From an uncultured Alphaproteobacteria bacterium (GTDB taxonomy: Bacteria > Pseudomonadota > Alphaproteobacteria > Rhodobacterales > Rhodobacteraceae): 64,000 nt of DNA. Each line of letters starts with the position of its first letter. Positions within the stretch are counted from its first letter, which is position 1. A model generated the notes under the pieces. It saw only the letters and a list, made by a program, of their open reading frames with translations. It did no database searches and was not told the DNA's origin. Location: NCBI GenBank assembly GCA_963757495.1, contig CAVWRZ010000013.1, forward strand, positions 9,281 to 73,280. The letters are read 5' to 3'. Shown one piece after another: positions 7,238 through 24,240 of this stretch. The translations under genes and the position numbers were made by a program.

Positions 7238-7800
7238 GGACCCATCGATCCGGTTGCGGCCGGAGCGACTGCCTGCTTCGAGGCCCCGAACTTCGGGGTT
7301 ATCGATGAGCGACGTGTACTGGCCGGGCGAAGTCCGGATGGCCCGGCTTCGGCCGTGCTTTTCCGGGAGCCTTGGAATGCCGCGCGTCGACGACAGGCGC
7401 GTCCTTGGGCGGAGTACGGTCATCGACCGCAACGGCTTGCGCTGGCGCGATGCGCCCCGGGGAGCACGGCCCGCACGAGACGCTCCATGACCGCTGGAAA
7501 CGGTGGAGCGACATGGGTGTCTTGGCCTGGATCACGACGGGGCCTGTCGCCGAGGACCCGAACGACGAGACGATCCCGATCGACGCCACCTGCCCCGAGG
7601 CGCATCGCACGGCCTCGAGCCTGCGGGCGAAAGAGGGGGGCGCGGTCGCCCGATCGGTCGGACGAAGGGCGGCCTGGACCCTTGCCCGGCAGGCGATGCC
7701 CGCATCACCCAGAGGAGCGAGGCTGCATGCCGTCACGGATGCGGTCGGACGGCCGATCCGGTTCCTCGTGACCGCCGGAGGAGTGAGCGACTAGACCGGG
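7238..7800 (+). mobile_element. IS5 family (IS427-like) transposase remnant, frameshifted and truncated
   Basis: MSDVYW...MPRVDDRRVL...RNGLRWRDAP, RWKRWSDMGV, IDAT..AHRTASSL, RTKGG...LHAVTD..GRPIRF spread over several frames. Confidence 0.8.
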
Positions 7801-7834
7801 GCAAGGCAAGCCTCCGGGCTGACCGCCCCTACTT

Positions 7835-8020
7835 GACGGCATTCCACGGCAGCGGGTCGTTGACGCGGGTGATCTTTCAGTCGGGGATGCGGGCGAGGGT
7901 CTCGGCGCGCCAGGCCTGCGGGTCGGTGCCGTCGAGCTTGGCGGTCTCGATGAGGGTGCAGGCGATGGCGGCGGCGCGGCCGCCGGTGAGCGGGCCTGCG
8001 AAGAGGTGGATGAGATGACC
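7835..8020 (-). mobile_element. IS66 family TnpC C-terminal remnant
   Basis: HLFAG..GGRAAAIACTLIETAKLDGTDPQAW...LARIPD followed by a stop and KITRVND.LPW. Confidence 0.75.
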
Positions 8021-8077
8021 GGTTCCATGGATGCGCAGGGCAATGCGAGGCTCGGGGCGTTCGAAAGGAGAACGCTC

Positions 8078-9480
8078 ATGCGGGATCTCGACGCCTACGT
8101 CGGTCTCGACGTGCACGAGGAAACGATCACGGGAGCCATCGCCGCGGCTGGACGAGAAGGTGAAGTGCGATCATGGGGAGCGATCCCCGACGAGCGCACG
8201 GCGATCGATCGAATGCCGGAAGAGGATGGCCGCGCGCCACCCGACGGCTTCGTCTGCATATGAAGCGGGGCCCTGCGGATACGGCCTTCACAGACATCTC
8301 GGTTCGAAGGGTATCGACTGCCGTGTGACGGCACCTTCGAAGATGCCGGTGACCGCGACGCATCGTCGACACAAGAACGACACCAAGGATGCGGTTGCGC
8401 TTGCGCGTCTTCACCGCGCCGGAGAGCTGACCTGCATCTGGACGCCCGACGAAGGACATGAGGCGATGCAGGATCTGGTCCGGGCCCGGCGGATCGCGTC
8501 CCACCAGGTCCGCAAGGCCCGGCAGCGGATCGGCTGCTGCCTTTCGAAGTACGGCCGCCGTTACGGGCGCAAACGATGGGGCCGGACACATCGGACGTGG
8601 CTTGCGGACCTTCGGTTTGCCCATGCGGCGCAGCAGTCCGCGTTGCAAGGCCATGTCATCGAAGGAGAGCAGGCCGTGGCCCGCCGCGCGCAGGTCGACG
8701 GACGGATCGAGGTGCTTGTGCCGGAGTGGCGCTCGGCGCCCGTGGTGCGAGACCTCGCCGCGCTGCGTGGCGCCAGCGTGGCAATCGCCTCCGCAGTGGC
8801 CGCCGAGGTGGGCGACTTCTCGCGCTTCGCCGGTGCCCGACAGCTCATGAGCTCCCTTCGGCCTCGTGCCGGGGGAATACTCCAGCGGCGGGACGACACG
8901 GGCGCGCGGCATCACGAAGGCAGGGTTCTCGGACGTTCGGGCCTTGCTGTCCGAGGCAGCGTGGCTCTACCGGCTGCGACCCGAAGTCGGACACTGGCAG
9001 CGGACCTGTCGGGGAGATCCGTCCCGAGCGGCGCAGGATATCGCCTGGAAGGCACGGCCGAGGCTGCATGGTCGATATCGCCGCCTGACCCGGACGCGCC
9101 GGAAGCGCAGCCCCAGGTCGCCGTCACCGCCGTGGCCCGTGAGCTGGTCGGCTTCATCCGGGCAATCGCCGGGAATGTGGAGGAAACCGCGATGGCGAAC
9201 CGACTGTCCGCACCGCCGCCGGATCATCACGCCGCCGGTGGTCCGTATGCAGGGCGTCGAGACCGGTCCGAGGAAATCCCCGGGCAAGAATCCGGAGCCG
9301 GTCGCCATGGCCGGATCCGCGCAGGTAGACCGGGGCCGCCCTCCATGCCGCATCATCATCATGGGGCCGAACAGGATCCCCGAACGAGAGTTCGAGCAAC
9401 CGTCGCGACGACCTCAGTGCCCTGCACCCGCCCATCGGCGAAGACCTTCGACGTTCCGACCACGTATCGGGCGACCGATC
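8078..9480 (+). mobile_element. IS110 family transposase pseudogene with ~280 bp downstream non-coding region
   Basis: AGGAG RBS plus ATG 8078; YVGLDVH, YEAGPCGYG, NDTKDA (DEDD core), EVGDFSRF, EYSSG, GITKAG and VTAVARELVGFI motifs; frameshifts near 8220-8250, 8860 and 9110. Confidence 0.85.
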
Positions 9481-9499
9481 GTCTGCGTTCATGGAGTCG

Positions 9500-10400
9500 A
9501 CGACGGTCATGAGGGTCACGAGGGTCCTGGGGTCCTTCCCACGGAGACGGAGCGCACGGCACGTTCGGCCGTGTCGTCGTCGTCGTCGTCGATCTCGAGG
9601 GAGGCGTGGTCGGGACAGGGCCGGAGCCGCCTCATGCGGGCCGGGGCGCAGCGGATCGCGACGGCGAGGGGCGGAGATGCCGGGAAGCCGGGCGTGGAGC
9701 CGCGCCTGGAGGTCGTCGAAGACAGGCGCGACATTCGCCTGCCGGATCCCCACCCGCCCGTCCGGCGGCGAGCCCCGCGCGTCCTTCTCGACCGCGTGGA
9801 GCTGCGCGATGCGCGCGATGGCCTCGTCCCCTGCCCGGCCGTGCAGGTCCGCATGCCCGGGAGGGGGGCATGGCCGACCCTCGCCCTGTGGACGGGGGGC
9901 CCTGTGGACGGGGGGCCCTGTGGACGGGGAGCCCTGTGGACGGGGAGCCCTGTGGCACCACCGGTCCGGGACCCGTGGCGAACGGACCTGCGGCGCACAT
10001 GCCGCGCCCGGCGGTCCATCGCGAGGCGATGTCACGGGAGGGGCCCTGCGTCCCGTCCTCCTCGACCGGCCCCCCGGACCGATCGATCGCTGCGCGCCCG
10101 TCTCCGGACCCTCGCGGATGTCGCCGGGGCGGGAGAGGTGCCCGAACCCGGCATGGCAGCGGGCAGGGTATCCGCGCGGCGATGCCCGCAAGGAGGGAGC
10201 CCCGCCGGCCCGGGCGCGCGGGCGAGCCCCGCGCGCCACGCAGCACGACGGGCGGGCGCGGAGCGATGCCGGCCGGCGGTGGGGAACCGCCCCGTTCGCC
10301 ATGGGTCTCGCACCGATGGCGACCACATGGCTCACCGCTCGTCCCGGCCGTACGCCCGGAGCCGCGCCGTCGCCGCCCTGCCGGTGCAGGGGGCCGCCAT
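9500..10400 (-). mobile_element. IS66 family TnpC central remnant, heavily interrupted by short inserts
   Basis: AHVRR, GSA..DEAIARIAQLHAVEKDARG, LEID...TAERAVR.V.VGR; (GTC)6 expansion at ~9573-9590. Confidence 0.7.
9884..9955 (+). repeat. Tandem repeat, 4.5 copies of a 16-bp unit CCCTGTGGACGGGG(G/A)G
   Basis: Units start at 9884, 9900, 9916, 9932 and 9948 (partial); no spacers between them. Confidence 0.95.
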
Positions 10401-10459
10401 CTTCACCGGGGTATCGTCCATTGCCCGGCGGGCGATCGCGCGGCGATCTGCCGAACGGG

Positions 10460-11491
10460 CGGCAGGGATCCTGCGCGGGTCGATGCGGCCACCGCACCGC
10501 GCGCCGTGCGCGAGTATCTCGACACCTTGGATGAGGCCGCCTTCGGCGCGGCCTCGGAGGTAGCGCCGAAGTTCACCTCCTTCTCGGATCCTGCCAGCCA
10601 GTGCCTCTCGGGACATTGCTGTGCAATGCCCTGACGGTAGTAGACCGCGGCGCGCAAGGGTGAGCCGATGGAGCGCCAATGGTCCGAGCGACATTGGCGA
10701 ACGCCTTCTTCGCCTATTCGACGCACTATCTGATCGATACCGACCACGCTATGATCGTCGATGTCGAGGCGACCCGGTCGATCAGACAGGCCGAAGTCGG
10801 ATCCGTCCGGACGATGCTGGACCGGGTCAGGGCCACGTTCGATCTGCATCCGGAGCGTATCATCGCGGACACGGCATATGGGTCCGGCCCGATGTTGGAC
10901 TGGCTGGTGGAGCGGAAGATCGCGCCGCATATCCCGGTCATTGACAAGGCAGGCCGCACGGACGGCACCTGGTCCCGAACCGACTTTGCGTGGGACGCGA
11001 AGAACAACCAATACGTTTACCCGGAAGGCGAACCTCTCAAGCAATTCCGCCGCAACTACTCGGACTCGAAACGCGGCCCGACTGACAAGGGTATCGCGAA
11101 ATATCGTCTGCCAGGCCTGCCCACCTAAGCCGAGGTGCTGTCCGAACGCAGATGCCCGCAAGATCACTCGCGAAGAGCACGAAGACGCCCGCCAGGTCGC
11201 CCGCGACATTTCAAGGCTGACTCGTACGTCACCTCGATGCGGCTCCGAAAGAAGGTCGAGATGCTCTTCGCCCATCTCAAGCGCATCCTGTGCCTGGGAC
11301 GACTCCGATCACGCGGACCGAACGGCGCAAACGACGAATTCCTCCTCGCTGCAACCGCCCAGAACCTCCGCAAACTGGCCAAGATGTTCCCCGCCCAGCA
11401 ACGGCCGAAGCAAGGCTGATATCAAAGGCGCTCGCGCCCCGTCGGCACGTCACTTTCTGCACAAGCAGCATGCCCTATTTTCCACAGGATC
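10460..11491 (+). mobile_element. IS1182 family transposase pseudogene (5'-truncated)
   Basis: APRAVREYLDTLDEAAFGAAS..PKFTS.SDPASQ, AFFAYS.HYLIDTDHA.IVDVEATRSIRQAEV, IADTAYGS, RKKVEMLFAHLKRIL.LGRLR.RGP.GA.DEFLLAATAQNLRKLAK. Confidence 0.88.
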
Positions 11492-11817
11492 GGCCGTTTT
11501 CTGCCCTTCCCGCTTTGTATCCAGTCTTCTCCAGCGAGCCTTCAAGGGAAGCTACCAAGGCTTCAATGCTATCGCGCTGGCTATCACCAAGGACAGCGCG
11601 GAGCCCATTTTCGTTGGAAATATTCTGCGTGCGGGTGTTGGCGTCGAAAAGAAGGCAGCGGCGGCCAATGCCAACAGGTCTCGGCCAATCCCACGAAACC
11701 TTGTTATTTCAATAGGTAGACTAGTGTTTTCCGATATTCAAAAAAATCTTTTGACAGGGGTGCGCAAGTAAAACCGCCGGCTTGCGCCCTCTTATGCCCC
11801 ATAGGCAGGAGGTCGTC

Positions 11818-11894
11818 TGGCGGGCCCAGAAGGATTCGAACCCTCGACCTGCCGATTAGAAGTCGGCTGCTCTATCCAGCTGAGCTATGGGCCC
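11818..11894 (-). tRNA. tRNA-Arg (anticodon UCU)
   Basis: Reverse complement GGGCCCATAGCTCAGCTGGATAGAGCAGCCGACTTCTAATCGGCAGGTCGAGGGTTCGAATCCTTCTGGGCCCGCCA folds as a cloverleaf; loop CTTCTAA, GTTCGAATC T-loop, encoded CCA. Confidence 0.97.
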
Positions 11895-11934
11895 CCGCCC
11901 CCGTGCATGCCGCGAACCTCCCCCCGGGCGCAAG

Positions 11935-13254
11935 TCACAGATGCCCGCCCACCAGCTCCGCCACGTCCACCCGCGCGCCCAGTCGCGACGCCAGCAGGAA
12001 CATGCCCCCTACCTTGCGCTGCAGGTAGAGCACGTCGATGGGCACCGGCGGCGGCACGAAGCCCGACCGCGCCAGCGCCTCCCCCTCCGCCTGCAACCGC
12101 ACGGGCAGGTCTGTGCCGGCGAAATCGAAGCCACCGGGCGCGCGCAGGGCGTCGAACACCATCTCCATCATCCGCTTCAGCTGTGCTCTGTGCCCGTCGC
12201 TCAGCGTCTCCGGCAGCATCCCCAGCCGCCCCGCCGCCGCCTCCGCCCCGCCCATGTCGCCGTCGAGCCCCGCACGCAACAGCCGTCGATACTCACCCGT
12301 CACCTCCACCGAAATCTCCCGCGTGGCCCCGAAGTCCAGCAGCACGATCCGCCCCGTTCCGGCCTGCCAGCGGTAGTTGGCGAAGTTCGGATCGGTTTGC
12401 ATCACGCCCCAGCCGAAGGCCTCGCGCAGCGTCAGGTCGATCAGGTCGCGCGCCACCCGGTCGCGCACTTCCTGCGCTTCCTCCGCCACCGCCTCGATCG
12501 GCGCACCCTCCAGATAGGTCATCGCCAGGATCTCGCCCGTCGACCAGTCCGGCTGCACCTGCGGCACCACGAACCGCGCATCCCCGTCCAGTAGCGCGCC
12601 GAACCGCGCCAGGCCCCGCGCCTCCGCCGCGTAATCCGTCTCCTCGTGCAGCTGCACCCGAGCCTGCTCCAGATACGGTGCCAGATCGAACCCCTTCGGC
12701 AGCAGCCCGGAGAGCCGGATCAGCGCTCCGACGTTCGCCACGTCGCTGTCGATGCTCGCCGCCACGCCCGGATATTGCACCTTGATGGCGAGGTCGCGCC
12801 CATCCCGCGTCCGCGCCCGGTGCACCTGCCCGATGCTCGCCGCCGCCATGGGCCGTACGTCGAAACTCTCGAAGCGCGTCAGCCATCCCGCGGGCCAGTT
12901 CGATGCCAGTACCTTCTTGAGCTGCGCCGGCGGCATCACATGCGCCCCGTCGCGCAGCCGCGCCATGATCCCCGTAAGCTCCGGCGGCAACAGGTCGCCC
13001 GTGTCCATCGACACCAGCTGCCCGATCTTCATCGCCGCCCCCCGCATCTGCGCGAGCTGCTCGGTCACGCGGGAGACGTTGGCCGGAGTCAGCAGCAGCC
13101 CGCGCAGGTCCGGCCGCTCGCCCCGCCCCAGCTGCCGCGCCCCGCCCAGCGCCATGCGCCCGGCGACGCCCGCGCCGAGCCCGCCCATACGCGCCAGACG
13201 GTTCAGCCGACCGGACGGGACGGCCAGCGCTCGCCGTTCGCGCTCGTCGCTCAT
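11935..13254 (-). CDS. ABC1/AarF/UbiB family atypical kinase
   Basis: MRGAAMKIGQ, AAASIGQVHRA, LAIKVQYPGV, ETDY, MQTDPNFANY and LLDFGA motifs. Confidence 0.9.
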   Translation of the reverse strand: MSDERERRALAVPSGRLNRLARMGGLGAGVAGRMALGGARQLGRGERPDLRGLLLTPANVSRVTEQLAQMRGAAMKIGQLVSMDTGDLLPPELTGIMARLRDGAHVMPPAQLKKVLASNWPAGWLTRFESFDVRPMAAASIGQVHRARTRDGRDLAIKVQYPGVAASIDSDVANVGALIRLSGLLPKGFDLAPYLEQARVQLHEETDYAAEARGLARFGALLDGDARFVVPQVQPDWSTGEILAMTYLEGAPIEAVAEEAQEVRDRVARDLIDLTLREAFGWGVMQTDPNFANYRWQAGTGRIVLLDFGATREISVEVTGEYRRLLRAGLDGDMGGAEAAAGRLGMLPETLSDGHRAQLKRMMEMVFDALRAPGGFDFAGTDLPVRLQAEGEALARSGFVPPPVPIDVLYLQRKVGGMFLLASRLGARVDVAELVGGHL

Positions 13255-13766
13255 TCGTAGAGGCGCAGGTCCGAGACGGCCACGTCGGCGTGGAACTCCC
13301 GCCCGATGGCGATGATCCCCAGCCGCCGCAGCCCGGCCGCGTCGAAACTCGCATCGGTCCGGTGCGGCTCCAGCTCGGAGAAGGGCACGCGGACGGTCGT
13401 CCATTCCGCGGGAGCCTCGAAGGAGTACCGGAAGCTCTGCCACGGCCGGGTCAGCACGTCCGTCCGCGCGCGCAGTTCGTAGGTCTCGCCGTTGCCGTGG
13501 ACGTCGAACGTCACGCCGGTGGCCGTCGTCGCATCCGCTCCCACGTCGAAGTTCATCTGCACGAACCCGCCGTCGTTCTTCAAAGAGACGTCGCCGGTCA
13601 GCCGCGTGGCCTCGCGCCCGTCCACGACCTCCCGGTCGATACGGCCGGTGGAGACGCCGCCCATCACGGTGTCGGCCTCGAAGCGCCAGTCGGGGGTCAG
13701 GGTCATCGCATCCTCCGCGAGGGCAGGTGTGGTCAGCAGCAGGCTCAGGATCGTGGCTTTCAACAT
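13251..13766 (-). CDS. CIA30/NDUFAF1 family protein with predicted signal peptide
   Basis: DTVMGGVSTG, GDVSLKNDGGFVQ, WTTVRVPFSEL motifs; N-terminal MLKATILSLLLTTPALA. Confidence 0.85.
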   Translation of the reverse strand: MLKATILSLLLTTPALAEDAMTLTPDWRFEADTVMGGVSTGRIDREVVDGREATRLTGDVSLKNDGGFVQMNFDVGADATTATGVTFDVHGNGETYELRARTDVLTRPWQSFRYSFEAPAEWTTVRVPFSELEPHRTDASFDAAGLRRLGIIAIGREFHADVAVSDLRLYE

Positions 13767-13848
13767 GGTTGGGGATCTAGCGCACCGCGACACCGCGCCC
13801 AGCCCGGCCGCGTTGCGGCCGCCCGGCGCAGCGCCTAAGCCGCGCCCC

Positions 13849-15027
13849 ATGCGATACGATGCGATCATCCTCGGCGCGGGCGGCGCGGGCCTGATGTGCG
13901 CCGCCGTGGCCGGACGGGCGGGCGCGCGGGTGCTGGTGATCGACCACGCGCCGAAGGCAGGCAAGAAGATCCTGATCTCCGGCGGCGGGCGCTGCAACTT
14001 CACCAATACCGGCACCGAGCCGGGTCGCTTCCTGTCCGAAAACCCGCATTTCGCCAAATCCGCGCTCGGCCGCTACTCCCCGTGGGATTTCCTCGATCTG
14101 ATGCAGGCGCACGGCATCGCCTGGCACGAGAAGACGCTGGGGCAGCTCTTCTGCGACGGCTCCGCGCGGCAGATCGTGGCGATGCTCCTCGACGAATGTG
14201 CGCGGGGCGGGGCCGAGATCCGGCTGTCCACCCAGATCGGCGAGGTCGCCCATGCCGACGGTCTCTACCGCGTCGCCGGGGCCAGCGCGCCGACCCTCGT
14301 CGTCGCCACCGGCGGGCCGTCGATCCCGAAGATGGGCGCGACCGGCGTTGCCTACGACATCGCGCGGCAGTTCGGCCTGAACGTCGTCCCCCCGCGCCCC
14401 GCCCTCGTCCCCTTCACGCTGGGTGACGGCGATGCGGCCTTCCGCGACATCTCCGGGGTCGCCGTCCCCGCCACCGCACGCACCGGCTCCACGTCGTTCG
14501 AGGAAGCCGCGCTCTTCACCCACCGCGGCCTCTCCGGCCCCGCCGTCCTTCAGATCTCCTCCTACTGGTCGCGGGGCGATCCGGTTGCGCTGAATGTGAT
14601 GCCTAACGCCGCCGCCCACTTGCGAGACGCCCGCCGCCGGATGCCCCGCTCGGGCCTCAAGGCCGCGCTGACCGAATGCCTGCCCAGGCGTCTGGCCGAG
14701 GTTCTGGCCGACCGCATCGCCCTGCCCACCGAACTGGGCAATGCCTCCGACGCCACGCTCGACGAGGTAGCCAGCCAACTCACCGCGCTCACCTTCCACC
14801 CGACCGGCACCGAAGGCTACGCCAAGGCCGAGGTCACCGCCGGCGGCATCGACACCGCGGCGCTTTCGTCGACCACGATGGAAGCCCGCGCCGTCCCCGG
14901 CCTCCACGTCATCGGGGAAGCGGTGGACGTGACCGGCTGGCTCGGCGGCTACAACTTCCAGTGGGCCTGGGCCTCGGGCTGGGCCGCCGGCACGGCCATC
15001 GCTGCCCGCCCCGTGCAGCAGCGTTGA
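13849..15027 (+). CDS. HI0933/BaiN family NAD(P)/FAD-dependent oxidoreductase
   Basis: IILGAGGAGL, GKKILISGGGRCNFTN, LFTHRGLSGP, AEVTAGG, GEAVDVTGWLGGYNFQWAWASG. Confidence 0.92.
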   Translation: MRYDAIILGAGGAGLMCAAVAGRAGARVLVIDHAPKAGKKILISGGGRCNFTNTGTEPGRFLSENPHFAKSALGRYSPWDFLDLMQAHGIAWHEKTLGQLFCDGSARQIVAMLLDECARGGAEIRLSTQIGEVAHADGLYRVAGASAPTLVVATGGPSIPKMGATGVAYDIARQFGLNVVPPRPALVPFTLGDGDAAFRDISGVAVPATARTGSTSFEEAALFTHRGLSGPAVLQISSYWSRGDPVALNVMPNAAAHLRDARRRMPRSGLKAALTECLPRRLAEVLADRIALPTELGNASDATLDEVASQLTALTFHPTGTEGYAKAEVTAGGIDTAALSSTTMEARAVPGLHVIGEAVDVTGWLGGYNFQWAWASGWAAGTAIAARPVQQR

Positions 15028-15160
15028 GTTGCGGCCAGACTGACGATACAAGCTAACCCTTCGAGTCCCAGGAATTTAACCTTTGACAGAGGATCCGGCC
15101 AACTCCGTCTCAAGATCCGGCCAGTCGATCTCCTATTCATTTTCGCAACGTGACAAGAAC

Positions 15161-15186
15161 AAAAAGGGCCCACCGAAGTGAGCCCT
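15161..15186 (-). terminator. Possible intrinsic terminator (minus strand) downstream of the IS1595 gene
   Basis: AAAAA-GGGCCCAC-CGAA-GTGAGCCC: imperfect hairpin with an A-tract on its left. Confidence 0.45.
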
Positions 15187-15227
15187 GAGGCGGGTTGATC
15201 ATTTTCTGGCTGATGACGAGAACCCGC

Positions 15228-17830
15228 TTATCCACAAGACGAAGCGGAGGCATTAGGCCAACGAAGCCCGTATTCCTTTGATCGGCGCATCTGCTTTCCG
15301 ACGGCCCCTCGAAGCAGGGACCGCGTCTGCATGACCACCGGGACCGGTTTCCAGATCGTCGTGGGATTTCCCGTTAGGTTCCCGAATTTCGTGGTCCATT
15401 GCATGTAGATCTCGCCTGCCGGATCGCGGTCGTTCCAGCGCCAGATGATCTCGTCGAGGTAGCGCTGGAGGTGCTTGCGGCCGAGATCGTGATAGACGCC
15501 GACCAATGCGCGGGCCATCTGCGAGATCACCGCCTCGGCCGTGTTCGCGTGAGCGCCAGTCTCGGGATTTGCGTATTCGTTCTGGCTCTGGATGACGGAT
15601 CGATGCGAGGCCATCGTCTTCCCGAAGCCGATGTAGCTCGTGCTTCCGTCCGACATCAGCCTTGTCGTCTGCGGATCGATCCATTCCTTGAGAACGGCCT
15701 CGAGAGCGGGCCCTTGATCGCCCGGAACGACTCTTGCGCGCGCCTGTCCGTCCCGTGAGGCGGCCACGAAGACGATCGGCTTCCCACTGCCCTTTCCCCT
15801 TGGATTATTGACTTCTGCAAGAGATTTCGGCGCACCGCCGATGAAGGCGTCGTCGGTCTCGACGATATCATCCAGCGGCAGCGGATCGCATGTGCTGGGC
15901 TCCGCCCGGTCGGCCCCTGACCGCTCCACTGGAGCGTTCACCGCATTGTGGACAGGGCCTCACTCCATCATCTCGCGTATGGCATGACCTATGTGGAGTG
16001 CCCCCCGTTTCACCGGACAGTCCGGCTGGGGTTGAGCGTTTCGCGGAACTCGGCGGGCGAGCGCATGCGGAGCGCGGAATGCGGATGGACGGTGTTGTAG
16101 TCTGTGATCCATCCGGCGACGAGATCGAGCACCGTGGCGGCGTCGGGCAAGGGCGTGACGCGGACGTAGTCGCGCTTGAGGGTCTTGACGAAGGACTCGC
16201 TCATTCCGTTGCTTTCGGGCGACCGGACCGGCGTGAGGCAGGGGGTGAGGCCGAGGGCCGTGGCGAAGTCGCGCTCGCCATCGTCCTCGGACCGATGGCG
16301 GACGACGGCTCGCCCTTGGCGGTGTAGCAGCTGCCGTTGTCCATTGCCCGGCAGGGTATCGCGCAGCGATGTCCCGAGAGGGGGACAGATGCTCGACCCG
16401 GTGCGGGGCGCGACCGGTGCCGAAGCGGCGCTCGACGGCGGCGAGCATCATGTCGCGGATGTCGGAGCCGGAGATGCCCGCGCCCGCCACCGCGACGTGG
16501 GCTGCGATCTCGCGGTCGAAGGCGTCGATGAGCGAGCCTTGTCCGCCATCGGTCCGAGAACGATGGTCGAGCGCGACGCGGACCTTCTCGCCGTTCCGAC
16601 AGGCGATCTCGAGGGCGTCGGAACACCGGCGCAGGTTCGATGCCATCACCGCGACGCGGCCGTCGTGGACACGGCCCTCGCGTCGTCCGGTGGAGCGCTC
16701 CAGCGTCAGACCATGCTGGCCGAGAATGCGCGAGCCACGCGCTTGCGGTTGACCGGTTCCAGTCCTGAAGCCCGCCGCTCCCGGTTCAGCAGCGCCGTGA
16801 GGCGGCGGTGGCCGTAGGTCGGACGCTGGTCGACGAGGCGGCGGATGGCCGGCAGCAGCTCGACGTCGGCGGTCTTGCGATAGGAGCCGCGAGGCTTCGA
16901 CGCCCCGGACGCCCGCACGTGGAGCTGGGACCGGCTCACCTCCAGGGCCTCCGGCGCACAGCGGCTCACCGGGGAACCGTCCCTGGGCGGCGACGGCAGA
17001 TGCCACGTCTGTTCTTTGCCCGTGCCTGGTCCAGCGCCTCGCGCAGGATCTCGTTCTCCATCGTCTTGCGGCCAGGCATGCGCTCCAGGGCGCGGACCTT
17101 GTCCTCGAGCTTGGCAGGCCTCGGACGCGCCCACCACCGGTTCGTTCGACCCCACGGCCATCGCTCCCCCCTCGTCCATGAGGCGCCGCCAACGGAACAG
17201 CAGGTTCGGAGCCACGCCGCCCGCGCCGCGCCACGGCGGAGACGGACTCCCCGGAACCGTTCGTCGGCTTACGCGGCCCCATAGGGGCCACGGTCCTCCT
17301 CACCCTCGATGATGCGCAGCGTCCGTTGCGCCGGCCAGTAGCGGCGTCCGGCAAGGCCGGTGATCACCTCGACACGGGGATGCGTCTCGCCCGGCATAAG
17401 CATGTCCTCAAGCACAGGCTCGAGCCTTCCATGATCATGCCGGACTGTCCGGTCGAAATGGGGGGCAGTCCACCATCTTCCACGCAGTCTTCTGGTTCAC
17501 CCCCGGCAGCCGTCCCATCACGACCAGCGAAATACCCTTGGATGACGTCAGCACGGGAAACATCGCGGTGATCCAGATCCGAAGGTCGAGTTTCGTAGCG
17601 TGAAGGGGCGTCTTCGTCGTGATCGTGAACTGGCCGCGGCATCCCGCTTCGCCACACTGGTAGAGCCCGGGTCGGGATGACTTCCCCGCCAACTTGATCG
17701 AACGAACACTCCCGCAATTCGGACGATACCGCCCGTCAGCCCAGATGAGGCCTTTAAGAAAGACGCGCGCGTGATGCCCGTTCGGCATCTTGCGCCACAC
17801 GTCCTGGATGGATCTGAACTCGTCGATCAC
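15228..17830 (-). mobile_element. IS1595 family transposase pseudogene, split by a nested IS3-family element
   Basis: N-part: zinc-ribbon-like LYQC..CRGQFT..TKTPLHATKL...TSSKGIS...NQKTAWKM; resumes after the insertion as GHAIREMM; C-part IVETDDAFIGG, LMSDG, H.SVI.S..EY, ANTAE, GVYH....KHLQRYLDE..WRWN. Confidence 0.85.
15994..17472 (-). mobile_element. IS3 family (IS2-group) insertion sequence, degenerate, with terminal inverted repeats
   Basis: IRs TGGACTGCCCCCCATTTCGACCGGACAGTCCGG (from 17472, minus) and TGGAGTGCCCCCCGTTTCACCGGACAGTCCGG (from 15994); OrfA VAPNLLFRWRRLM..GRKTMENEILREAL; OrfB YGHRRLTALLNR, IDAFDRE, DNGSCYTA, ESNGMSESFVKTLKRDY, YNTVHPHSALRMRSP. Confidence 0.92.
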
Positions 17831-18001
17831 GCCACATCTCGCCAGCAATGTGAGGGGACCGGCGATATTGGCTATCCTGGCCCAAAACGAAGCCGGCTCG
17901 CCATTTCCACGCAGAATTGCCAGAAGACATTCAAGAACCGTGAACAATTGGACCGTTATTTGTATCCGCTTCTTCTGCTGGATAAGCGGGAACGAAAACC
18001 A

Positions 18002-18700
18002 CTAGGGGATCGCGCTCCCCACGCCGTCCGGCCCCGATCTCACCGAGACAGCAGTCAGCCCGACTCTACCCGGCCGCCGGCTCATCCCGCACATCATGTC
18101 ATCACCAGGAATCCGAGAGACGAAGTCTGGCCGTCGTCCCGGAATTCCGGAGAACCGTCCCGGAAATTGGCGCAGCCGTGATGTCGGAAGACCCCGCTCT
18201 GCAAACCGGAAGATCCTCGATCCAAGTGAGAAACGCGTCAAGATGCCGACGCGAAAGACAACTTTCCGGACCGTACCGGGGTCCTCGACCGGTACGAGCG
18301 GCTTGAGCAGCCCCGCTCCATACAGGGACCGGACCCGGCCCTTCGAGTCACCGATGGCCTTCGGTACATCCTCGAGCAGTACGGCGTCGGCGAGATCAGC
18401 GCAGAAGGTTTCCATCTCCTCGGCCGGAAAGACCAATCTTCCACTCTCGGCGTCCGACGCTCCAGTCGGGACGAGGCCCAGTTTTCTGGAGAAGCCGGGA
18501 GAGGTGCCTGCGATCCATGCCGGTCTCAGCCGACAGTGTAACAATGGAATGAAACTTGCGCCGGATCATCTCGACCCCAAGACCCACTTCGCCGCCATCG
18601 ACGGCGGAGTGCTCGACGGTGTGGGCGCGAAGCACGTCCCGGATCGGACCCGGGTCGATCATGTTGGCCCCCCAGTCCAGCCCGTCGTAGAGCCGCCCGT
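18002..18700 (-). pseudogene. C-terminal fragment of a probable TniQ-family (Tn7/Tn5053-like) protein, truncated by an IS1182 remnant
   Basis: YGRLYDGL...DPGPIRDVLRAH...RRKFHSIVTLSAETGMDRRHLSRLL resembles C-terminal regions of alphaproteobacterial TniQ proteins as recalled; lower GC than flanks; N-terminal TniQ domain absent. Confidence 0.45.
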
Positions 18701-18744
18701 ACGTTGCAAGGGGGCCAGCCTGGACCGCCGTGGCCGTGGCGGCG

Positions 18745-19465
18745 GTGAGCCACGTCGGCTTCGGCCCGTGACGGACCTCGACGCGATCGATCATCGTCCG
18801 CGCGGTGCCGATCCCGGCCTGCCGGATGGACCGGGTCGCCTCCACGTCCACGATGACGGCGTCGTCGGGGTCGACGATGACGGCGTCTTCGGGGCCGACG
18901 AGGCAGTCGTGCGGGCAGGTGAACACCGCCGGACCCTTCCGGGCGGCCGTCTGTCGGCTGGCGGGACCCGGGTGCGACACGGACCTGGACCTGGGCCTGG
19001 GCTTGGGCCTGGGCCTGGCCGGGCCGGCCGCGCCGAACGCGTTCGCGCATTCTGTCGTGCCGATGGCGTTCATGCGCTCACCGTCGAGGGGCTCGAGAGA
19101 CCCGCGGACCGCGCGCGGTGCTTCATAGGGGTCGATGGCACCCGCATCCCACCTCGCCCGGGCGCTCGAGCTCGAGGCCTGTCCACGTCCGCCATCCCTC
19201 CCGGGACCTCGCTGGCGCAGGGCCCTGCCGGGCAATGGATCAGACTTGCATCGACGGCGAACCCGGCACCGCCGACCAGACCCTCCTCGATGCAGCGCGT
19301 CACGACGCCCCCGAAGAGCAGCCGCAGCAGATCGCCGTCGCGAAATCCTCCCCGCCCCCCGGAATCGAGCGAACCAGGAGACTTGCCCCATCGCAACAGG
19401 GACCTCTGCGACGAAATGGACCCAGAGCGACCGATGTCGCGATCCGCATGAATGGTCGCTTCCGG
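18745..19465 (-). mobile_element. IS1182 family remnant (copy 1), inverted relative to the copy at 22.5-24.2 kb
   Basis: FRDGDLLRLLFGGVVTRCIEEGLVGGAGFAVDASLI...IVDVEATRSIRQAGIGTARTMIDR; near-identical to the reverse complement of 22510-22670 plus 23015-23540. Confidence 0.85.
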
Positions 19466-19596
19466 GATGCTGAACGTCAGGCGGGCAACATCGCTGCGGC
19501 CGGCTCGTCCATAAGCATCGCCTTCATCCCGGCCGCGCGCGGCGGACCTGATCTCTATACGGAGACAGTGCCCATCTCCCGCCCACAGGCGGCATG

Positions 19597-21414
19597 TCAT
19601 CGGAGGATCGCGGGGCCGAGGATGGCGAAGAGGCCGAGTGCACCGAGCGCCGAGCGCCGCCAGATGGGGCCAGGCGCGATTACGGCGCGGCTTACTGCCA
19701 TGAGACCGCCTGCGAGGAGCACGAAAGCCACTGCCGCGGCACCCGGCTCTTCCGCAGCCCGCAGTATCGCGGGCTGGGCGATCATGCCGAGCGGAATGAG
19801 GTAGAGCCCGAGACCGAGCGCCATCGCGGTGAGCGCCACGCGCAGCCAGTTCTCGCCCACCATGCCCGCGGCGATGAAGACCGCACCGCAGACGGGGGGG
19901 GTTATGGTTGAGAGAAGCGCGAACCAGAAGACGAAGAGGTGCGCTTGAAGAGGCTCGAGACCGAGCCGCTCCAGGGCCGGGCCGGCGACGGAGATGCAGA
20001 TCACGTAGGCGGCCGTGGTGGGCACCTCCATCCCGAGGAGGAGGCAGGCAAGCGCGGTCAGCAGAAGCGCGGGCCAGAGCGAACCGCCCGAGCCCGCGAG
20101 GATGGCTGACGTCATCTTGATCCCAAGGCCTGTGATTCCGAGGACGCCGATCACGATCGATGCGCATAGGATGATCGCTCCGATCATCGCCACCTGCCGT
20201 CCCGCCGAGAGGCATGCGGCGGAGAGGCGTCCGGGGAAGCGGGCCAACGCAAGGCCCTGTCCGTCGAATGCGAGCAACGCGGTGCCCGCCGCGATGGCCG
20301 CGACGGCGGCGTATTGCGGCGTGAAGCCGGCGGCGAACATCATCGCCAGAAGGACGGTGAAGGGCACGAGGAAGAAGGCCGAGGTCACGATTACGTCGCG
20401 CCGCGCAGGCCGGTCGGCCTCGGCCAACCCTCTCAGATCGTGTCGGGCGGCGAAACCGTCGATGCCGGTCCATACCGCCCAGAAGTAGAGCAGCGCCGGC
20501 AGGATCGCGGCGGCCATGATACCGGTGTAGGGCACTCCCGTCAGCTCGACCATGACGAAGGCACCCGCGCCCATCAGGGGCGGCATGATCTGACCACCGG
20601 AGGACGCGACCGCCTCGACGGCCGCCGCGAGCCGTTTGGGGTATCCCAGACGCGTCATGGTCGGCAGCGTGACGGCACCGGTGGAGGCGACGTTGGCTGA
20701 CGCGCTCCCCGATATGGAGCCGAAGAGCGCCGAGGAGAGGACCGAGACCTTGGCCGCGCCGCCCCTGGCGCGCCCTGCCGCCGCGGCCGCGACATTCATG
20801 AAACCCGCTCCCGCTTCACCGGCGTTGAGGATCGCACCGAAGATGACGAAGATCGCCACGACCCCGACCGAAACACCCGTCAGAGAGCCCCATATTCCGC
20901 CCTCGGAGATGGTCAGCGTGCCGAGGAACGAAGCGAGCGGAAGGCCCGCGTGGCCGAACGTGCCGGGGATGTGCTGGCCCAGGAGACCGTAGGCGAGCGC
21001 TGCGGCAGCGACGGCCGGTAGCGGCCATCCGATCATCCGGCGCGCACCCTCCAGCACCAGCGCGAGGAGGAGGACCGCAAGTGCGACCTGACCCGGACCT
21101 TCGAGGAAACCGTACTGATTCCGCAAGGCGACATGGTTCCAGGCGATCCAGAGGCAGGCGGCGATGCCCCCGCCCGAAAGCGCATAGCCCGCCGTGGCCT
21201 GCGCCTGCGTCGTGGCCGCAGCGACGAAGACCCAAGGTAGCAGAAGCGCCATGTGCAACGGCCGCGCGACCAGGTTGGGCACGAGCCCGTAGAGGATCAG
21301 GCCCAGATGCGCCGCGACCGTCAGAGCGCCGAGTGCGACCCAAACGGCCCGTCGCCCACGGGGATCGGCGGGTGCGAGGGGCGCGGCGGGAACCGTTCGG
21401 AGGGGACTATCCAT
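19597..21414 (-). CDS. TRAP transporter fused permease (4TM/12TM fusion type)
   Basis: Many TM helices; AAKVSVLSSALFGSISGSASANV, EAVASSGGQIMPPLMGAGAF, LGMEVPTTAAY, ITPPV motifs. Confidence 0.92.
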   Translation of the reverse strand: MDSPLRTVPAAPLAPADPRGRRAVWVALGALTVAAHLGLILYGLVPNLVARPLHMALLLPWVFVAAATTQAQATAGYALSGGGIAACLWIAWNHVALRNQYGFLEGPGQVALAVLLLALVLEGARRMIGWPLPAVAAAALAYGLLGQHIPGTFGHAGLPLASFLGTLTISEGGIWGSLTGVSVGVVAIFVIFGAILNAGEAGAGFMNVAAAAAGRARGGAAKVSVLSSALFGSISGSASANVASTGAVTLPTMTRLGYPKRLAAAVEAVASSGGQIMPPLMGAGAFVMVELTGVPYTGIMAAAILPALLYFWAVWTGIDGFAARHDLRGLAEADRPARRDVIVTSAFFLVPFTVLLAMMFAAGFTPQYAAVAAIAAGTALLAFDGQGLALARFPGRLSAACLSAGRQVAMIGAIILCASIVIGVLGITGLGIKMTSAILAGSGGSLWPALLLTALACLLLGMEVPTTAAYVICISVAGPALERLGLEPLQAHLFVFWFALLSTITPPVCGAVFIAAGMVGENWLRVALTAMALGLGLYLIPLGMIAQPAILRAAEEPGAAAVAFVLLAGGLMAVSRAVIAPGPIWRRSALGALGLFAILGPAILR

Positions 21415-21468
21415 CTCGCTCGCCTGCGCGAAGGAGTGGCCGGGGCGAGCGCTGCCCCGGCGGCGCGA

Positions 21469-22413
21469 TCAATTGACCGGCACAGCCACGCCGATCTCTT
21501 CGTAGTAGCGCAGGGCACCGGGATGGACCTGCGTCGTCACGGCACCCATCATGTCGGGCGTCACGCCGTCCCACCACGCGGCCGATCCGCCAAGGGTCTC
21601 CTTGTTCTCCCAGAAGGCCTTGGTGAGGTCGTAGGCCGTATCGTCCGCCATCGCCGCGGTGGCGAACGCGACGACGGGCAACGAGGTCGTCACGACGTCC
21701 GTGTCCTGTCCCGCGTAGGTGCCGGCGGGGATGACGAGGCGGGTGCGCCCGGTCTCCTCGACCTGCGCGTCGGTCATCGACAGGATCGTCACGCCGGTCG
21801 AGGCGGCGGCCTCGATCACGTTCGGCGCGGGGTAGGAGCCGGCGGTCACGAACCCGTCGATCTGCCCGTTCTTGAGGGCGGCGACGGCATTCGACAGTTC
21901 CGCGTCCGCGACGTTCACGCTGTCGGCGACGCCGAAGAGGCCGAGGTACTTCTCGCCTTCGGTCGCGCCGAAGCTGCCGGAGCCGAGCAGGATCGTCTTG
22001 CCGGCCATGTCCTCGAAGGTCTCGATGCCACTGTCGGAACCGACGACGAAGTGCATCGTGAGCGACGGGATCGGAAAGAGCGCGCGGATGCCGTCGAACG
22101 CTTCGCTGCCCTTGTCCTCGAACGGACCGCTGGCGGATTGCGCGGCGGCGATCAGGGCCGGGGGGGTGGTGAAGACGTAGTCGGCCCCGCGCGCCCGCAC
22201 TTCCATGACGTTCTGAACGCTGCCCTGACTTTCCTCGACCGTGACGGCGGCAATGCCCTTGAGGGCTTCCGAAAGCTGGACGCCCATCTGGAAATAGGCG
22301 GTGCCGGCCTTGGCCGACTTGTAGGTGATCCGTTCCTGCGCGGCGGCGGGCAGCGCTATGGCGGCAAGTGCCGCGGCAGTGACTGCGGTTGCGATGGTGG
22401 CCCTGATGGTCAT
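21469..22413 (-). CDS. TAXI family TRAP solute-binding protein
   Basis: Signal peptide ending in AAA; ESQGSVQN, GSGSFG, ALKNGQIDG, HPGALRYYEE motifs; upstream of the fused permease. Confidence 0.9.
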   Translation of the reverse strand: MTIRATIATAVTAAALAAIALPAAAQERITYKSAKAGTAYFQMGVQLSEALKGIAAVTVEESQGSVQNVMEVRARGADYVFTTPPALIAAAQSASGPFEDKGSEAFDGIRALFPIPSLTMHFVVGSDSGIETFEDMAGKTILLGSGSFGATEGEKYLGLFGVADSVNVADAELSNAVAALKNGQIDGFVTAGSYPAPNVIEAAASTGVTILSMTDAQVEETGRTRLVIPAGTYAGQDTDVVTTSLPVVAFATAAMADDTAYDLTKAFWENKETLGGSAAWWDGVTPDMMGAVTTQVHPGALRYYEEIGVAVPVN

Positions 22414-22509
22414 GGCGTATTCTCCCTATTTGGGCCGACGGTGACAGCCAGGCCACCCATGTCAAGGTTTGGCCGCCGAGAAGATCGACACGCGGGAGTG
22501 AGCTGCGGG

Positions 22510-24240
22510 CCGTGGGATCACCGGAAGCGGCCATTCATGCGGATCGCGACATCGGTCGCTCTGGGCCCATTTCGTCGCAGAGGTCCCTGTTGCGATGGGG
22601 CAAGTCTCCTGGTTCGCTCGATTTCGGGGGGGGCGGGGAGGATTTCGCGGCGAGGGGCGGGCGGACGGCTCCGGCGACGCGGTTCCACGACTTCGATCCG
22701 GAGGCGCAGGTGCCGGGCGACCGTCCATTGCGTCGGGTCGGCCGGTTCCTCGACAGGGAGCGGATGCGCGCGCGGCCCGCACCGTTCCGGAAGCCACATC
22801 GGCCGCCCCTCGGTCGACCCCGGCGACCCCGGGCCGATCGTGCGGATGCTGCTGGCCGGATACCCGACGGGCATCCGCTCCGAGCGCCGGCGGTGCGACG
22901 AGGTGCATCCGAACCCGGCGCATCGGCGCATCGGACCGTCTCGGCCTCGACGGACGTGTCCCCGATCGCCCGACCGATCCGGAAATGCGGGCATGGGCCC
23001 CAGGTTCCGCGACGGCGATCTGCTGCGGCTGCTCTTCGGGGGCGTCGTGGACGCGCTGCATCGAGGAGGGTCTGGTCGGCGGTGCCGGGTTCGCCGTCGA
23101 TGCAAGTCTGATCCATTGCCCGGCAGGGCCCTGCGCCAGCGAGGTCCCGGGAGGGATGGCGGACGTGGACAGGCCTCGAGCTCGAGCGCCCGGGCGAGGT
23201 GGGATGCGGGTGCCATCGACCCCTATGAAGCACCGCGCGCGGCCCGCGGGTCTCTCGAGCCCCTCGACGGTGAGCGCATGAACGCCATCGGCACGACAGA
23301 ATGCGCGAACGCGTTCGGCGCGGCCGGCCCGGCCCAGGCCCAAGCCTAGGCCCAGGCCCAGGTCCAGGCCCGTGTCGCACCCGGGTCCCGCCAGCCGACA
23401 GACGGCCGCCCGGAAGGGTCCGGCGGTGTTCACCTGCCCGCACGACTGCCTCGTCGGCCCCGAAGACGCCGTCATCGTCGACCCCGACGACGCCGTCATC
23501 GTGGACGTGGAGGCGACCCGGTCCATCCGGCAGGCCGGGATCGTCCCCTTCGTTCCGGTTTTCCATTGCCCAACAGGACATCGCGTGCCGCGATGCCCCG
23601 AGAGGGGACAAGTCCAAGCGAACCGACGGCACCCGGTCGCGGTCGGACTTCGAGTGGGACGAGCAGAACGACCGCGACGTCTGCCCCGGAGGCCACGAGC
23701 TGCTTGGGTACCGGCGCAACCACTCCGATCCGACGACGGAAGGACCGTCGGCCGGGCGGCAGAAGTACCGGGCCCTCGCATCCGACTGCAGGGCGTGCCC
23801 GTCGAAGCTCCGCTGCTGCCCGAAGGCCGCCGCGAGGGACATCACCCGCGAGGAGCACGAGGACGTCCGGGGCGTCGCCCGGGAGTGCGTGGCCTCCGAG
23901 GTCTGCAGGAAGATCGCAGGCCCCGGGCGCAGACAGGTCGAGATGCTCTTGGGGCACCTCGCGCGCATCCTCGGGCTCGGCCGCCTGCGCTTGCGGGGGC
24001 CATGCGGTGCCGGGGACGAGTTCACCCTCGCCGCCACCGCCCGGAACCTCCGGACGCCCGCGAAGCTCAGGCCGCGGACGACCCCAGCGGCGGCCACGAG
24101 GTGATCCGAGAGGCCGGAAAGGGCGAAACGACCGACCTGGCCGGGCCCGGGCCCGAGGCCGAACCCGCGACGAGCCCCCAGATGGGCCAAACCACCGCCT
24201 CGAGCAGCCGACTTTCTTTACGAGATGGGCTTGAAGCAGA
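22510..24240 (+). mobile_element. IS1182 family transposase pseudogene (copy 2, near full length, degenerate)
   Basis: FHDFD.EA.VP.D, GRPSVDP...MLLAGY..GIRSERR.C.EVH, FRDGDLLR, DKSKRTDG..SRSDFEWDE, VEMLLGHL.RILGLGRLRLRGPCGAGDEF. Confidence 0.85.

Follow-up and report, generated by a model that had tools for sequence, protein, structure and literature searches.

Why should two families of very short hairpin repeats be found in the remains of insertion sequences (ISs) and in no other part of the surrounding DNA? The question is raised by a 64-kb stretch of the genome of an uncultured bacterium of the Rhodobacteraceae (hereafter the window; positions 9281–73280 of contig C13 in the genome under study, G000, which comprises 3.28 Mb in 17 contigs at 69% GC), where the initial annotation had placed about 17 copies of two micro-elements, here termed A and B, in dead sequence of several IS families. 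It had offered two explanations, namely that purifying selection leaves only IS debris as a sink for inserts, or that the elements preferentially hit transposase genes and act as hyperparasites that inactivate them. Having defined both families by direct reading of positions 7.1–18.2 kb, short-seed BLAST and iterated nhmmer profiles, we find that the restriction to IS DNA holds not only in the window but also genome-wide and in other genera. We propose a mechanistic preference for IS DNA, followed by hitchhiking spread, as the best explanation, to which we lend about equal measures of confidence and doubt.

An nhmmer scan of the window returned seven firm A, two firm B and four weak matches, all at 7.6–23.7 kb, and, even with E ≤ 10 as the cut-off, no match to either family elsewhere in the 64 kb. 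This lowers the earlier figure of about 17 to nine firm and four weak copies, the surplus probably representing a 16-nt tandem array at 9883–9955 and degenerate pieces; the dense cluster described at 9.8–10.7 kb is real, with about six copies rather than eight; and the three copies said to lie within 300 bp of the IS3 orfB are recovered at 16272–16573. The IS110 (8031–9512) and IS1595 (15228–15941 and 17435–17947) remnants, described as free of inserts, likewise gave no nhmmer match to A or B. The copies are as follows.

7677–7720, + strand: degenerate A-like copy in an IS5-like remnant (weak nhmmer match at 7677–7697, E = 1.9; hairpin recognisable by eye)
10006–10043, + strand: diverged A in the IS66 remnant (nhmmer E = 1.8e-6), the same event being found at C2:480143 and C4:51437
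10162–10187, + strand: degenerate A-like copy (weak nhmmer match, E = 7.6)
10293–10322, − strand: weak B-like hairpin (nhmmer E = 0.033)
10415–10458, + strand: A of the subfamily GGCGAT..ATCTGCC in the IS66 remnant (nhmmer E = 6e-8)
10604–10637, − strand: A with the compensatory stem variant ATTGC/GCAAT (nhmmer E = 1.1e-7 and alignment)
10673–10703, + strand: weak B-like hairpin (nhmmer E = 0.87)
16272–16309, − strand: B in the IS3 orfB, between ..YTAK and DFATAL.. (nhmmer E = 2.8e-10)
16338–16383, + strand: A, antisense in the IS3 orfB, which it splits into ..EHLS / DNGS.. (nhmmer E = 1e-14)
16535–16573, + strand: B in the IS3 orfB, in the orientation opposite to that of the copy at 16272 (nhmmer E = 5e-11)
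19194–19240, − strand: A in the left inverted IS1182-type remnant (nhmmer E = 4.6e-8)
23111–23157, + strand: A in the right inverted IS1182-type remnant (nhmmer), identical to the copy at 19194–19240, flanks included
23560–23608, + strand: A with the extended stem CATCGCG/CGCGATG in an IS1182-type remnant (nhmmer E = 1.8e-7)

Both A and B are true inserts. Empty paralogous sites were identified in G000 for 32 A copies, the filled and empty forms differing by 41 nt (40–44 nt in old, diverged pairs) and showing no target duplication; in the best pair, the filled site at C17:52388 and the empty one at C7:21972/3 have flanks that are 96–98% identical. The window copy at 10415–10458 has a paralogue at C2:480989, which is 41 nt longer, net, than the corresponding empty site in C8, and excision of 41 nt from the copy at 16338–16383, whose insertion event recurs at C11:397989 and C15:99127, restores on reading of the sequence the codons CTG TCC/G GAC AAC GGC (..E H L S D N G S..). 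At C11:408135–408177, moreover, one A lies in opposite orientation and 3′ of GTC inside an older A, the uninterrupted form of which is found at C9:15397–15400, so that the elements serve as targets for each other. Reading-frame restoration by in-silico excision was otherwise uninformative, since at 69% GC long open frames cross the sites whatever length is removed; third-position GC (GC3) periodicity, a weak signal in IS DNA, indicated coding on both sides of the insert at only 7 of 63 sites, and Pfam searches of GC3-guessed open reading frames (ORFs) gave mostly no matches.

The consensus of A, CAYTGCCCGGCAGGGYATYGCGCAGCRATGTCCCGAGAGGG, corresponds to a unit of very constant size (41 nt in 131 of 137 copies at loci from other genomes) that abuts a short target. 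Among 215 distinct sites, the bases adjoining its 5′ end are CATC (46), CGTC (29), TGTC (20) or GATC (13) in 108 cases, with T at −2 and C at −1 in approximately 70–75%, and the right flank displays only a preference for G and no matching repeat. The YRTC tetranucleotide belongs to the target, as it is already present at the empty sites. Alignment of 36 A copies, taken from the window and from 30 other genomes, supports a fold with two helices: an outer one of 3 bp (CCC/GGG, three copies having A:T in place of a C:G pair) and an inner one of 9 bp with G-C pairs at its base, one bulged T and a 3-nt loop, separated by conserved unpaired GGCA and GAGA and followed by a GAGAGGG tail. In this model 98.1% of the alignment cells are paired and 7 of the 12 pairs have changed on both sides; none of 500 shuffles matches these values, and sliding the partners by 1–3 columns reduces pairing to 33–49%. 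Two subfamilies, GGGCAT..ATGTCCC and GGCGAT..ATCTGCC, recur across many genera.

Element B has a conserved core, GCGAGCC-TTG-TCCGCCATYGG-TCCGAGGA-CRATGGCGAGC, and ends that vary jointly (GCGAGC...GCGAGC, GT...AC, or AT...AT), and shares the motif CCGAGRG with A. At the window copy 16272–16309, an AAG codon and a GAC codon lie 44 nt apart, which fits 35 inserted nucleotides plus three codons. One B event, represented by loci L049, L086 and L108 in three other genomes, has a 9-nt direct repeat, GACAGCGG.., on its two sides, which sets it apart from most B copies; possible readings are occasional target duplication by B or a separate subfamily. With a cut-off as loose as E ≤ 1, Rfam gave no match at the sites of A or B, a tRNA at 11821–11894 being the only entry to pass, and literature and sequence-string searches, whose coverage did not extend to subscription journals, yielded no description of either element.

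How strict, then, is the association with IS DNA? At a threshold of E ≤ 1e-3, G000 contains 164 A and 38 B copies in 51 tight clusters, which reduce, when grouped by flank similarity, to 84 independent events (63 A and 21 B), 45 of them single and the others common to as many as 13 copies of one IS. The transposase map against which these were set was built by eight Pfam searches followed by tblastn propagation; it is incomplete and marks 3.1% of the genome as transposase-homologous, or 144 kb (4.4%) once a 200-nt margin is included. The genome-wide copy map by compartment, which the initial annotation had named as a check, reads as follows.

Transposase-homologous DNA ± 200 nt: 144 kb, 71 events, 49 per 100 kb
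Other repeated DNA: 103 kb, 7 events
Predicted non-IS genes: 2.5 Mb, 2 events, 0.08 per 100 kb
Unique DNA without a called gene (intergenic proxy): 525 kb, 4 events, 0.76 per 100 kb

The two families are thus found almost exclusively in IS DNA, where their density is approximately 65-fold above that of unique uncalled DNA (binomial p = 2e-40 under a null of placement proportional to the size of all non-genic DNA). Of the events outside the mapped compartment, three (the two in predicted genes and one of the seven in other repeated DNA) show similarity to ISNCY/IS30 transposases from plasmids of Rhodobacterales, and the four in uncalled unique DNA all adjoin IS clusters. All eight mapped IS families are hit, at 0.8–2.7 copies per kb, and 62 of 96 IS loci bear at least one copy, the insert-free loci including seemingly intact IS66, IS3 and IS5 copies; the IS256 family was not found in G000. 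Single elements can be struck repeatedly, with as many as eight copies in 1.2 kb of one IS. A single-copy Tn3 tnpA fragment (C16:302131–303239) carries one A and two B within 450 bp, with unique flanks and a Pfam match interrupted exactly at the inserts; when plasmids were searched for a similar copy of this host free of inserts, the relatives recovered were only 67% identical. A second Tn3 fragment, at C7:32097–32979, is without inserts.

These figures bear directly on the sink explanation, according to which insertion would take place anywhere 3′ of the short target and purifying selection would spare only copies in dead ISs. The near-absence of the elements from intact genes is what such a process would leave behind, and most IS hosts in the window do bear additional lesions besides the inserts; the sink would, however, extend to the 525 kb of unique uncalled DNA, which holds 4 events against 71 in 144 kb of transposase DNA, and it does not account for eight copies in 1.2 kb of one IS or three in the 1.1 kb of a single-copy Tn3 gene. 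The compartment densities lead us to reject a sink maintained by selection alone, and we regard that first explanation as very unlikely.

The same restriction is seen beyond G000. A degenerate A core pattern occurs in more than 114 contigs of a one-genome-per-species collection, nearly all from Rhodobacterales. In a survey of approximately 600 genomes that took one genome per genus within the family (201 genomes; related genomes are non-independent samples), strict A matches were found in 32 of the 201 sampled genera, G000 included, usually at 1–4 per genome, and the reversed pattern used as a control had no matches; G000, with 47, is the richest of all genomes sampled, followed by G138 with 15 and G089 with 11. 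Among approximately 397 genomes from 182 other alphaproteobacterial families, a single one was positive, with one copy. Hosts in other genomes include rve, DDE_Tnp_1, IS66, IstB of IS21, IS3 OrfA and IS6 genes, and B co-occurs in the fetched loci. For 20 rare copies, picked solely for their long contigs and representing 13 genera of the family and one outside genome, 19 lie in or beside strong transposase homology and not in intergenic DNA, which again speaks against the sink. Some transposase queries were themselves open frames extending across an A, so that weak tblastn matches (E ~1e-5) atop A copies in other genomes are possibly circular and one count of transposase hosts (82 of 156) may be slightly inflated; the rare-copy count, like the orientation counts given below for the 202 dereplicated events, used only strong transposase matches reaching past the element.

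Grouping of 312 A copies, from G000 and 114 loci of other genomes, gives 173 independent events, 25 of which are common to several genomes, 8 of these with G000; with 51 further copies from other genomes, the totals rise to 363 copies and 202 events. So many independent events indicate that hitchhiking is not the source of the pattern. They also weigh on a bias of exposure or immigration, in which integration, having no preference for ISs as such, would occur only in particular donor hosts, or on replicons that go through a single-stranded stage (in conjugation or rolling-circle replication) with the enzyme at hand, and only IS-borne copies would later be exported, leaving recipient chromosomes with inserts in ISs alone. 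The patchy phyletic distribution, with 1–3 copies in most positive genera, is as expected for arrival with ISs; 25 events are common to several genomes; hit IS copies multiply and move; and neither G000 nor five other match-rich genomes contain a candidate enzyme. Yet G000, the richest genome of all, is itself IS-restricted, its plasmid-like small contigs are devoid of copies in non-IS intergenic DNA, and no source genome rich in non-IS copies was encountered among those sampled. The variation between filled and empty sites among G000 IS paralogues, the nesting of A in A and the number of independent events, at least 173, add to the case against immigration, and we consider it unlikely.

Can an intact IS be struck, and with what consequence? 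The initial annotation had suggested looking for relatives in which the insert is the sole lesion, and G138 (99% complete, 5 contigs) provides precisely this. It carries a 1325-bp IS3-family element (reference L131:1–1325, G138:C2) in five full-length and approximately five truncated copies that are 99.2–99.5% identical, every one with a single antisense A between DITYIP and MARGF of OrfB, adjacent to the first catalytic Asp. Apart from this insert, the frames of OrfA and of the two parts of OrfB are open, so that the A is the only lesion, an arrangement at odds with debris acting as a sink. No empty copy was found within G138; homologues on Paracoccus and Ketogulonicigenium plasmids, annotated as IS3 transposases, are 86–90% identical and 41 nt shorter. 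We conclude that A struck an intact IS and that the hit element still multiplied. The 1.2-kb IS of G000 behaves in the same way, its three A inserts being common to 13, 12 and 10 copies. An insert therefore does not simply end an IS lineage, insert-bearing ISs having multiplied to as many as 13 copies per event. The spread of hit ISs could have relied on help in trans, gene conversion or rescue by a −1 frameshift.

The last of these possibilities touches on the length of the inserts, as the gains of 41 nt for A and a net 35 nt for B are both 2 mod 3 and impose the same −1 frame shift. The G138 hairpin starts 3–4 nt past a C-rich run (ATT CCC CCT CTC), and it is a speculative thought that a −1 ribosomal shift within the insert would restore the frame at the cost of 14 additional residues. 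Could A and B then be native parts of ISs, such as regulatory hairpins, frameshift stimulators or translational-bypass cassettes? Their recurrence in IS genes, a shift of the kind that IS3 elements use and the C-rich run in G138 would all suit that idea. It is nonetheless refuted by the exact empty sites in paralogues and other genera, and is further disfavoured by the unrelated IS families, unrelated positions and both orientations in which the elements occur; at the G138 site there are, in addition, no matched take-off and landing codons (CCC and TGG) and no stop codon past the take-off site. We accordingly regard a native origin as extremely improbable.

Frame disruption by every insert would also be expected if the elements served host defence, either because transposase-killing inserts were retained by positive selection or because a host system wrote them in. 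Several inserts fall at catalytic regions (SDNGS in the window IS3, DITYIP/MARGF in G138), and the G138 element bears no lesion besides its insert. Closeness to DDE motifs is anecdotal, however, and is not what this account predicts, since any frameshift would be equally good. Repeated hits in copies that were already dead are the rule, where they would bring no benefit, insert-bearing ISs kept multiplying, and no host gene is associated with the elements. Host defence thus seems to us a very doubtful explanation.

The orientation of the inserts provides a further constraint. Relative to the transposase gene, A in G000 divides into 22 sense and 33 antisense and B into 11 sense and 7 antisense, and the 202 dereplicated A events divide into 46 sense, 90 antisense and 66 unassigned. 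As the availability of YRTC on both strands predicts 50%, the antisense excess of A (p = 2e-4) is real, though only about 2:1. It excludes a function of the sense transcript at the RNA level and lends weak support to the link with transcription and single-stranded DNA that the initial annotation had suggested.

What kind of element, then, are A and B? IS608 and ISDra2 insert 3′ of a tetra- or pentanucleotide without target duplication, have imperfect hairpins and excise precisely. In line with IS200/IS605 miniatures, including palindrome-associated transposable elements (PATEs), and with repetitive extragenic palindromes and their associated tyrosine transposases (REP-RAYT), A sits 3′ of a short target without duplication (32 filled/empty comparisons with a ..RTC left flank). 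It differs from the IS200/IS605 miniatures and REP-RAYT systems in forming one compound 41-nt hairpin in place of separate left-end and right-end hairpins, and from REP-RAYT and PATE elements in its IS-restricted niche and in the lack of a Y1 HUH transposase or RAYT in six A-bearing genomes. Unlike classical MITEs (miniature transposable elements with inverted repeats), it causes no target duplication and has no longer parent with A-like ends in G000. Group II introns and nested ISs are mobile elements that prefer other mobile elements and spread with them, in what has been termed a ‘safe haven’; they are kilobases long and encode their own reverse transcriptase or transposase, and the introns splice from the host transcript. 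A and B, in contrast, are gene-less elements of 41 nt that disrupt the frame in both orientations. Bypass cassettes, as in T4 gene 60 and the mitochondrial byps, differ from A in that A occurs in both orientations and lacks, at the G138 site, a matching pair of take-off and landing codons.

Among published classes, the nearest is that of the CGTC-tagged palindromic repeats (CGTC REP superfamily), which occur mainly in Alphaproteobacteria, bear CGTC, TGTC or CCTC at one end and have no dedicated transposase gene (Di Nocera et al. 2013, PMC3733652). Their stem of 8–9 bp starts with two A-T pairs and is accompanied by a 4–5-nt loop and a CCA tail, and they are mostly extragenic and mostly arranged as head-to-head dimers (PMC3733652). 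A resembles them in the CGTC, TGTC or CATC at its 5′ end, its 9-bp main stem and the lack of Y1 in the A-bearing genomes tested. It departs from them in starting with G-C pairs, in its 3-nt loop, in its second helix with GGCA/GAGA internal loops and its GAGAGGG tail, and in a tetranucleotide that is derived from the target; it also occurs as single units in either orientation and within IS genes (71 of 84 A and B events are in transposase-related DNA). A hence fails the structural definition of these repeats. Rickettsia palindromic elements and other intragenic REPs are likewise small palindromic repeats, found within protein-coding genes of Alphaproteobacteria (PMC3733652). The Rickettsia elements are in frame, and the proteins of the diverse genes in which they reside tolerate them, whereas A and B cause frameshifts and are limited to IS genes.

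Taken together, A and B would represent two families of non-autonomous hairpin micro-transposons, comparable to REPs or IS200/IS605-derived MITEs and probably moved in trans by an enzyme. A integrates as a 41-nt unit directly 3′ of YRTC without duplicating its target, presumably by a hairpin-guided ‘peel and paste’ reaction on single-stranded DNA or by rolling-circle-type, HUH-like chemistry. Such chemistry is suggested by the fixed length, the abutting tetranucleotide, the lack of any target duplication, a hairpin under selection and a possible precise loss, traits that are hallmarks of single-strand HUH-type transposition as known from IS200/IS605 and REP/RAYT. Integration appears strongly biased to IS DNA of many families through the state of the DNA rather than a sequence motif, the accessible form being presumably a single-stranded, replicating or transpososome-bound transposition intermediate. 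The inserts then ride along as the hit IS is copied within a genome and passed between genera. We favour a preference for IS DNA because IS3, IS5, IS6, IS21, IS30, IS66, IS110, IS630, IS1182 and Tn3 elements have only transposition intermediates in common. The IS-preferring hyperparasites of the second explanation thus fit better than the sink, although accessory IS genes (IstB of IS21 and OrfA of IS3) are hit as well as transposases. That A and B are dedicated hyperparasites, with a machinery that recognises transposing DNA, single-stranded or protein-bound, of any IS family, is a more tentative proposal, which we put forward as possible.

Several points weigh against a mechanistic preference. 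No mechanism is known to recognise the DNA of a dozen unrelated IS families, and the target motif of A is too short to account for such recognition. Y1_Tnp (PF01797) gave no match in G000, G138, G089, G155, G188 or G042, with positive results in control genomes, and an IS91-type Y2 enzyme occurs in only some A-bearing genomes and does not track A. No longer element with A-like ends was found in G000, where two orphan 5′ halves have no 3′ half within 4 kb. For B, the conserved span of 41–43 nt exceeds the net gain of 35 nt measured against empty paralogues that are 78–83% identical. Unlike in IS200/IS605, no bias towards a replication strand was detected for A (8 versus 10 singleton events and 35 versus 39 copies by local GC skew), in a comparison of low power, since skew is weak around many of the sites and orientation is scrambled as ISs move. 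The G000 assembly is 92% complete, its contigs break at IS clusters and no public sequencing run was found to contain this genome (best share of words 0.20); finally, the intergenic proxy rests on a home-made, crude codon-usage gene caller with a coding fraction of 78% and comprises DNA that is not wholly neutral. The proxy consequently overstates neutral DNA, though by less than the 65-fold that would be required.

Within the window, the hosts of the inserts and the neighbouring IS remnants are the following.

8031–9512, + strand: IS110-family remnant without inserts (PF01548; PF02371 at 8857–8967)
9600–10640, − strand: IS66-family remnant that hosts most of the cluster at 9.8–10.7 kb (PF03050 at C13:18950–19111, window 9670–9831)
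10706–11377, + strand: IS5/IS1182-type transposase remnant (PF01609 at C13:19986–20648; PF13751 at C13:20332–20657)
15228–15941 and 17435–17947: IS1595 domains flanking the IS3 element
15960–17430, − strand: dead IS3-family element nested in the IS1595 and carrying one A and two B (tblastn homology to rve transposases)

The IS3 element splits the IS1595 transposase gene to form a nested pair of ISs, and the micro-elements are found only in the inner IS3. A 16-nt tandem array, GCCCTGTGGACGGGGR, present in 4.6 copies at 9883–9955, borders on the IS66 remnant that is rich in A; its paralogue at C4:~51.5 kb has a shorter array, which directly follows an A copy whose 3′ end, GGGAGGGGCCCTG, overlaps the repeat unit, so that the array may have arisen from an A end. 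Inverted IS1182-type remnants at 18745–19300 and 23050–23540 bracket TAXI/TRAP transporter genes (DctM at 19597–21414), and the presence of the same A with identical flanks in both remnants indicates that the insert is older than the duplication that built the bracket. A DDE_Tnp_1_6 match at 23679–24053 lies directly downstream of the A copy at 23560–23608. No copy was found in the tRNA gene, the two metabolic genes at 11.9–15.0 kb or the TRAP transporter genes at 19.6–22.4 kb.

REPs and MITEs are known from intergenic DNA, whereas A and B are restricted to genes that belong to other transposable elements, in at least 10 IS families and, by strict A matches, in 32 of the 201 genera sampled within a single bacterial family. 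In practical terms, the inserts make transposase genes look like pseudogenes and explain frameshifted IS annotations in Rhodobacteraceae, and the occurrence of A without Y1 or RAYT is relevant to the puzzle of how alphaproteobacterial CGTC-type repeats are mobilised. A mechanistic restriction would imply an enzyme responsive to some state that all transposing DNA shares, and hence a new principle of target choice, as well as a natural attenuation of IS load. If A and B are indeed dedicated hyperparasites, they would constitute an undescribed trophic level of mobile DNA, crippling ISs yet travelling with them across a bacterial family.

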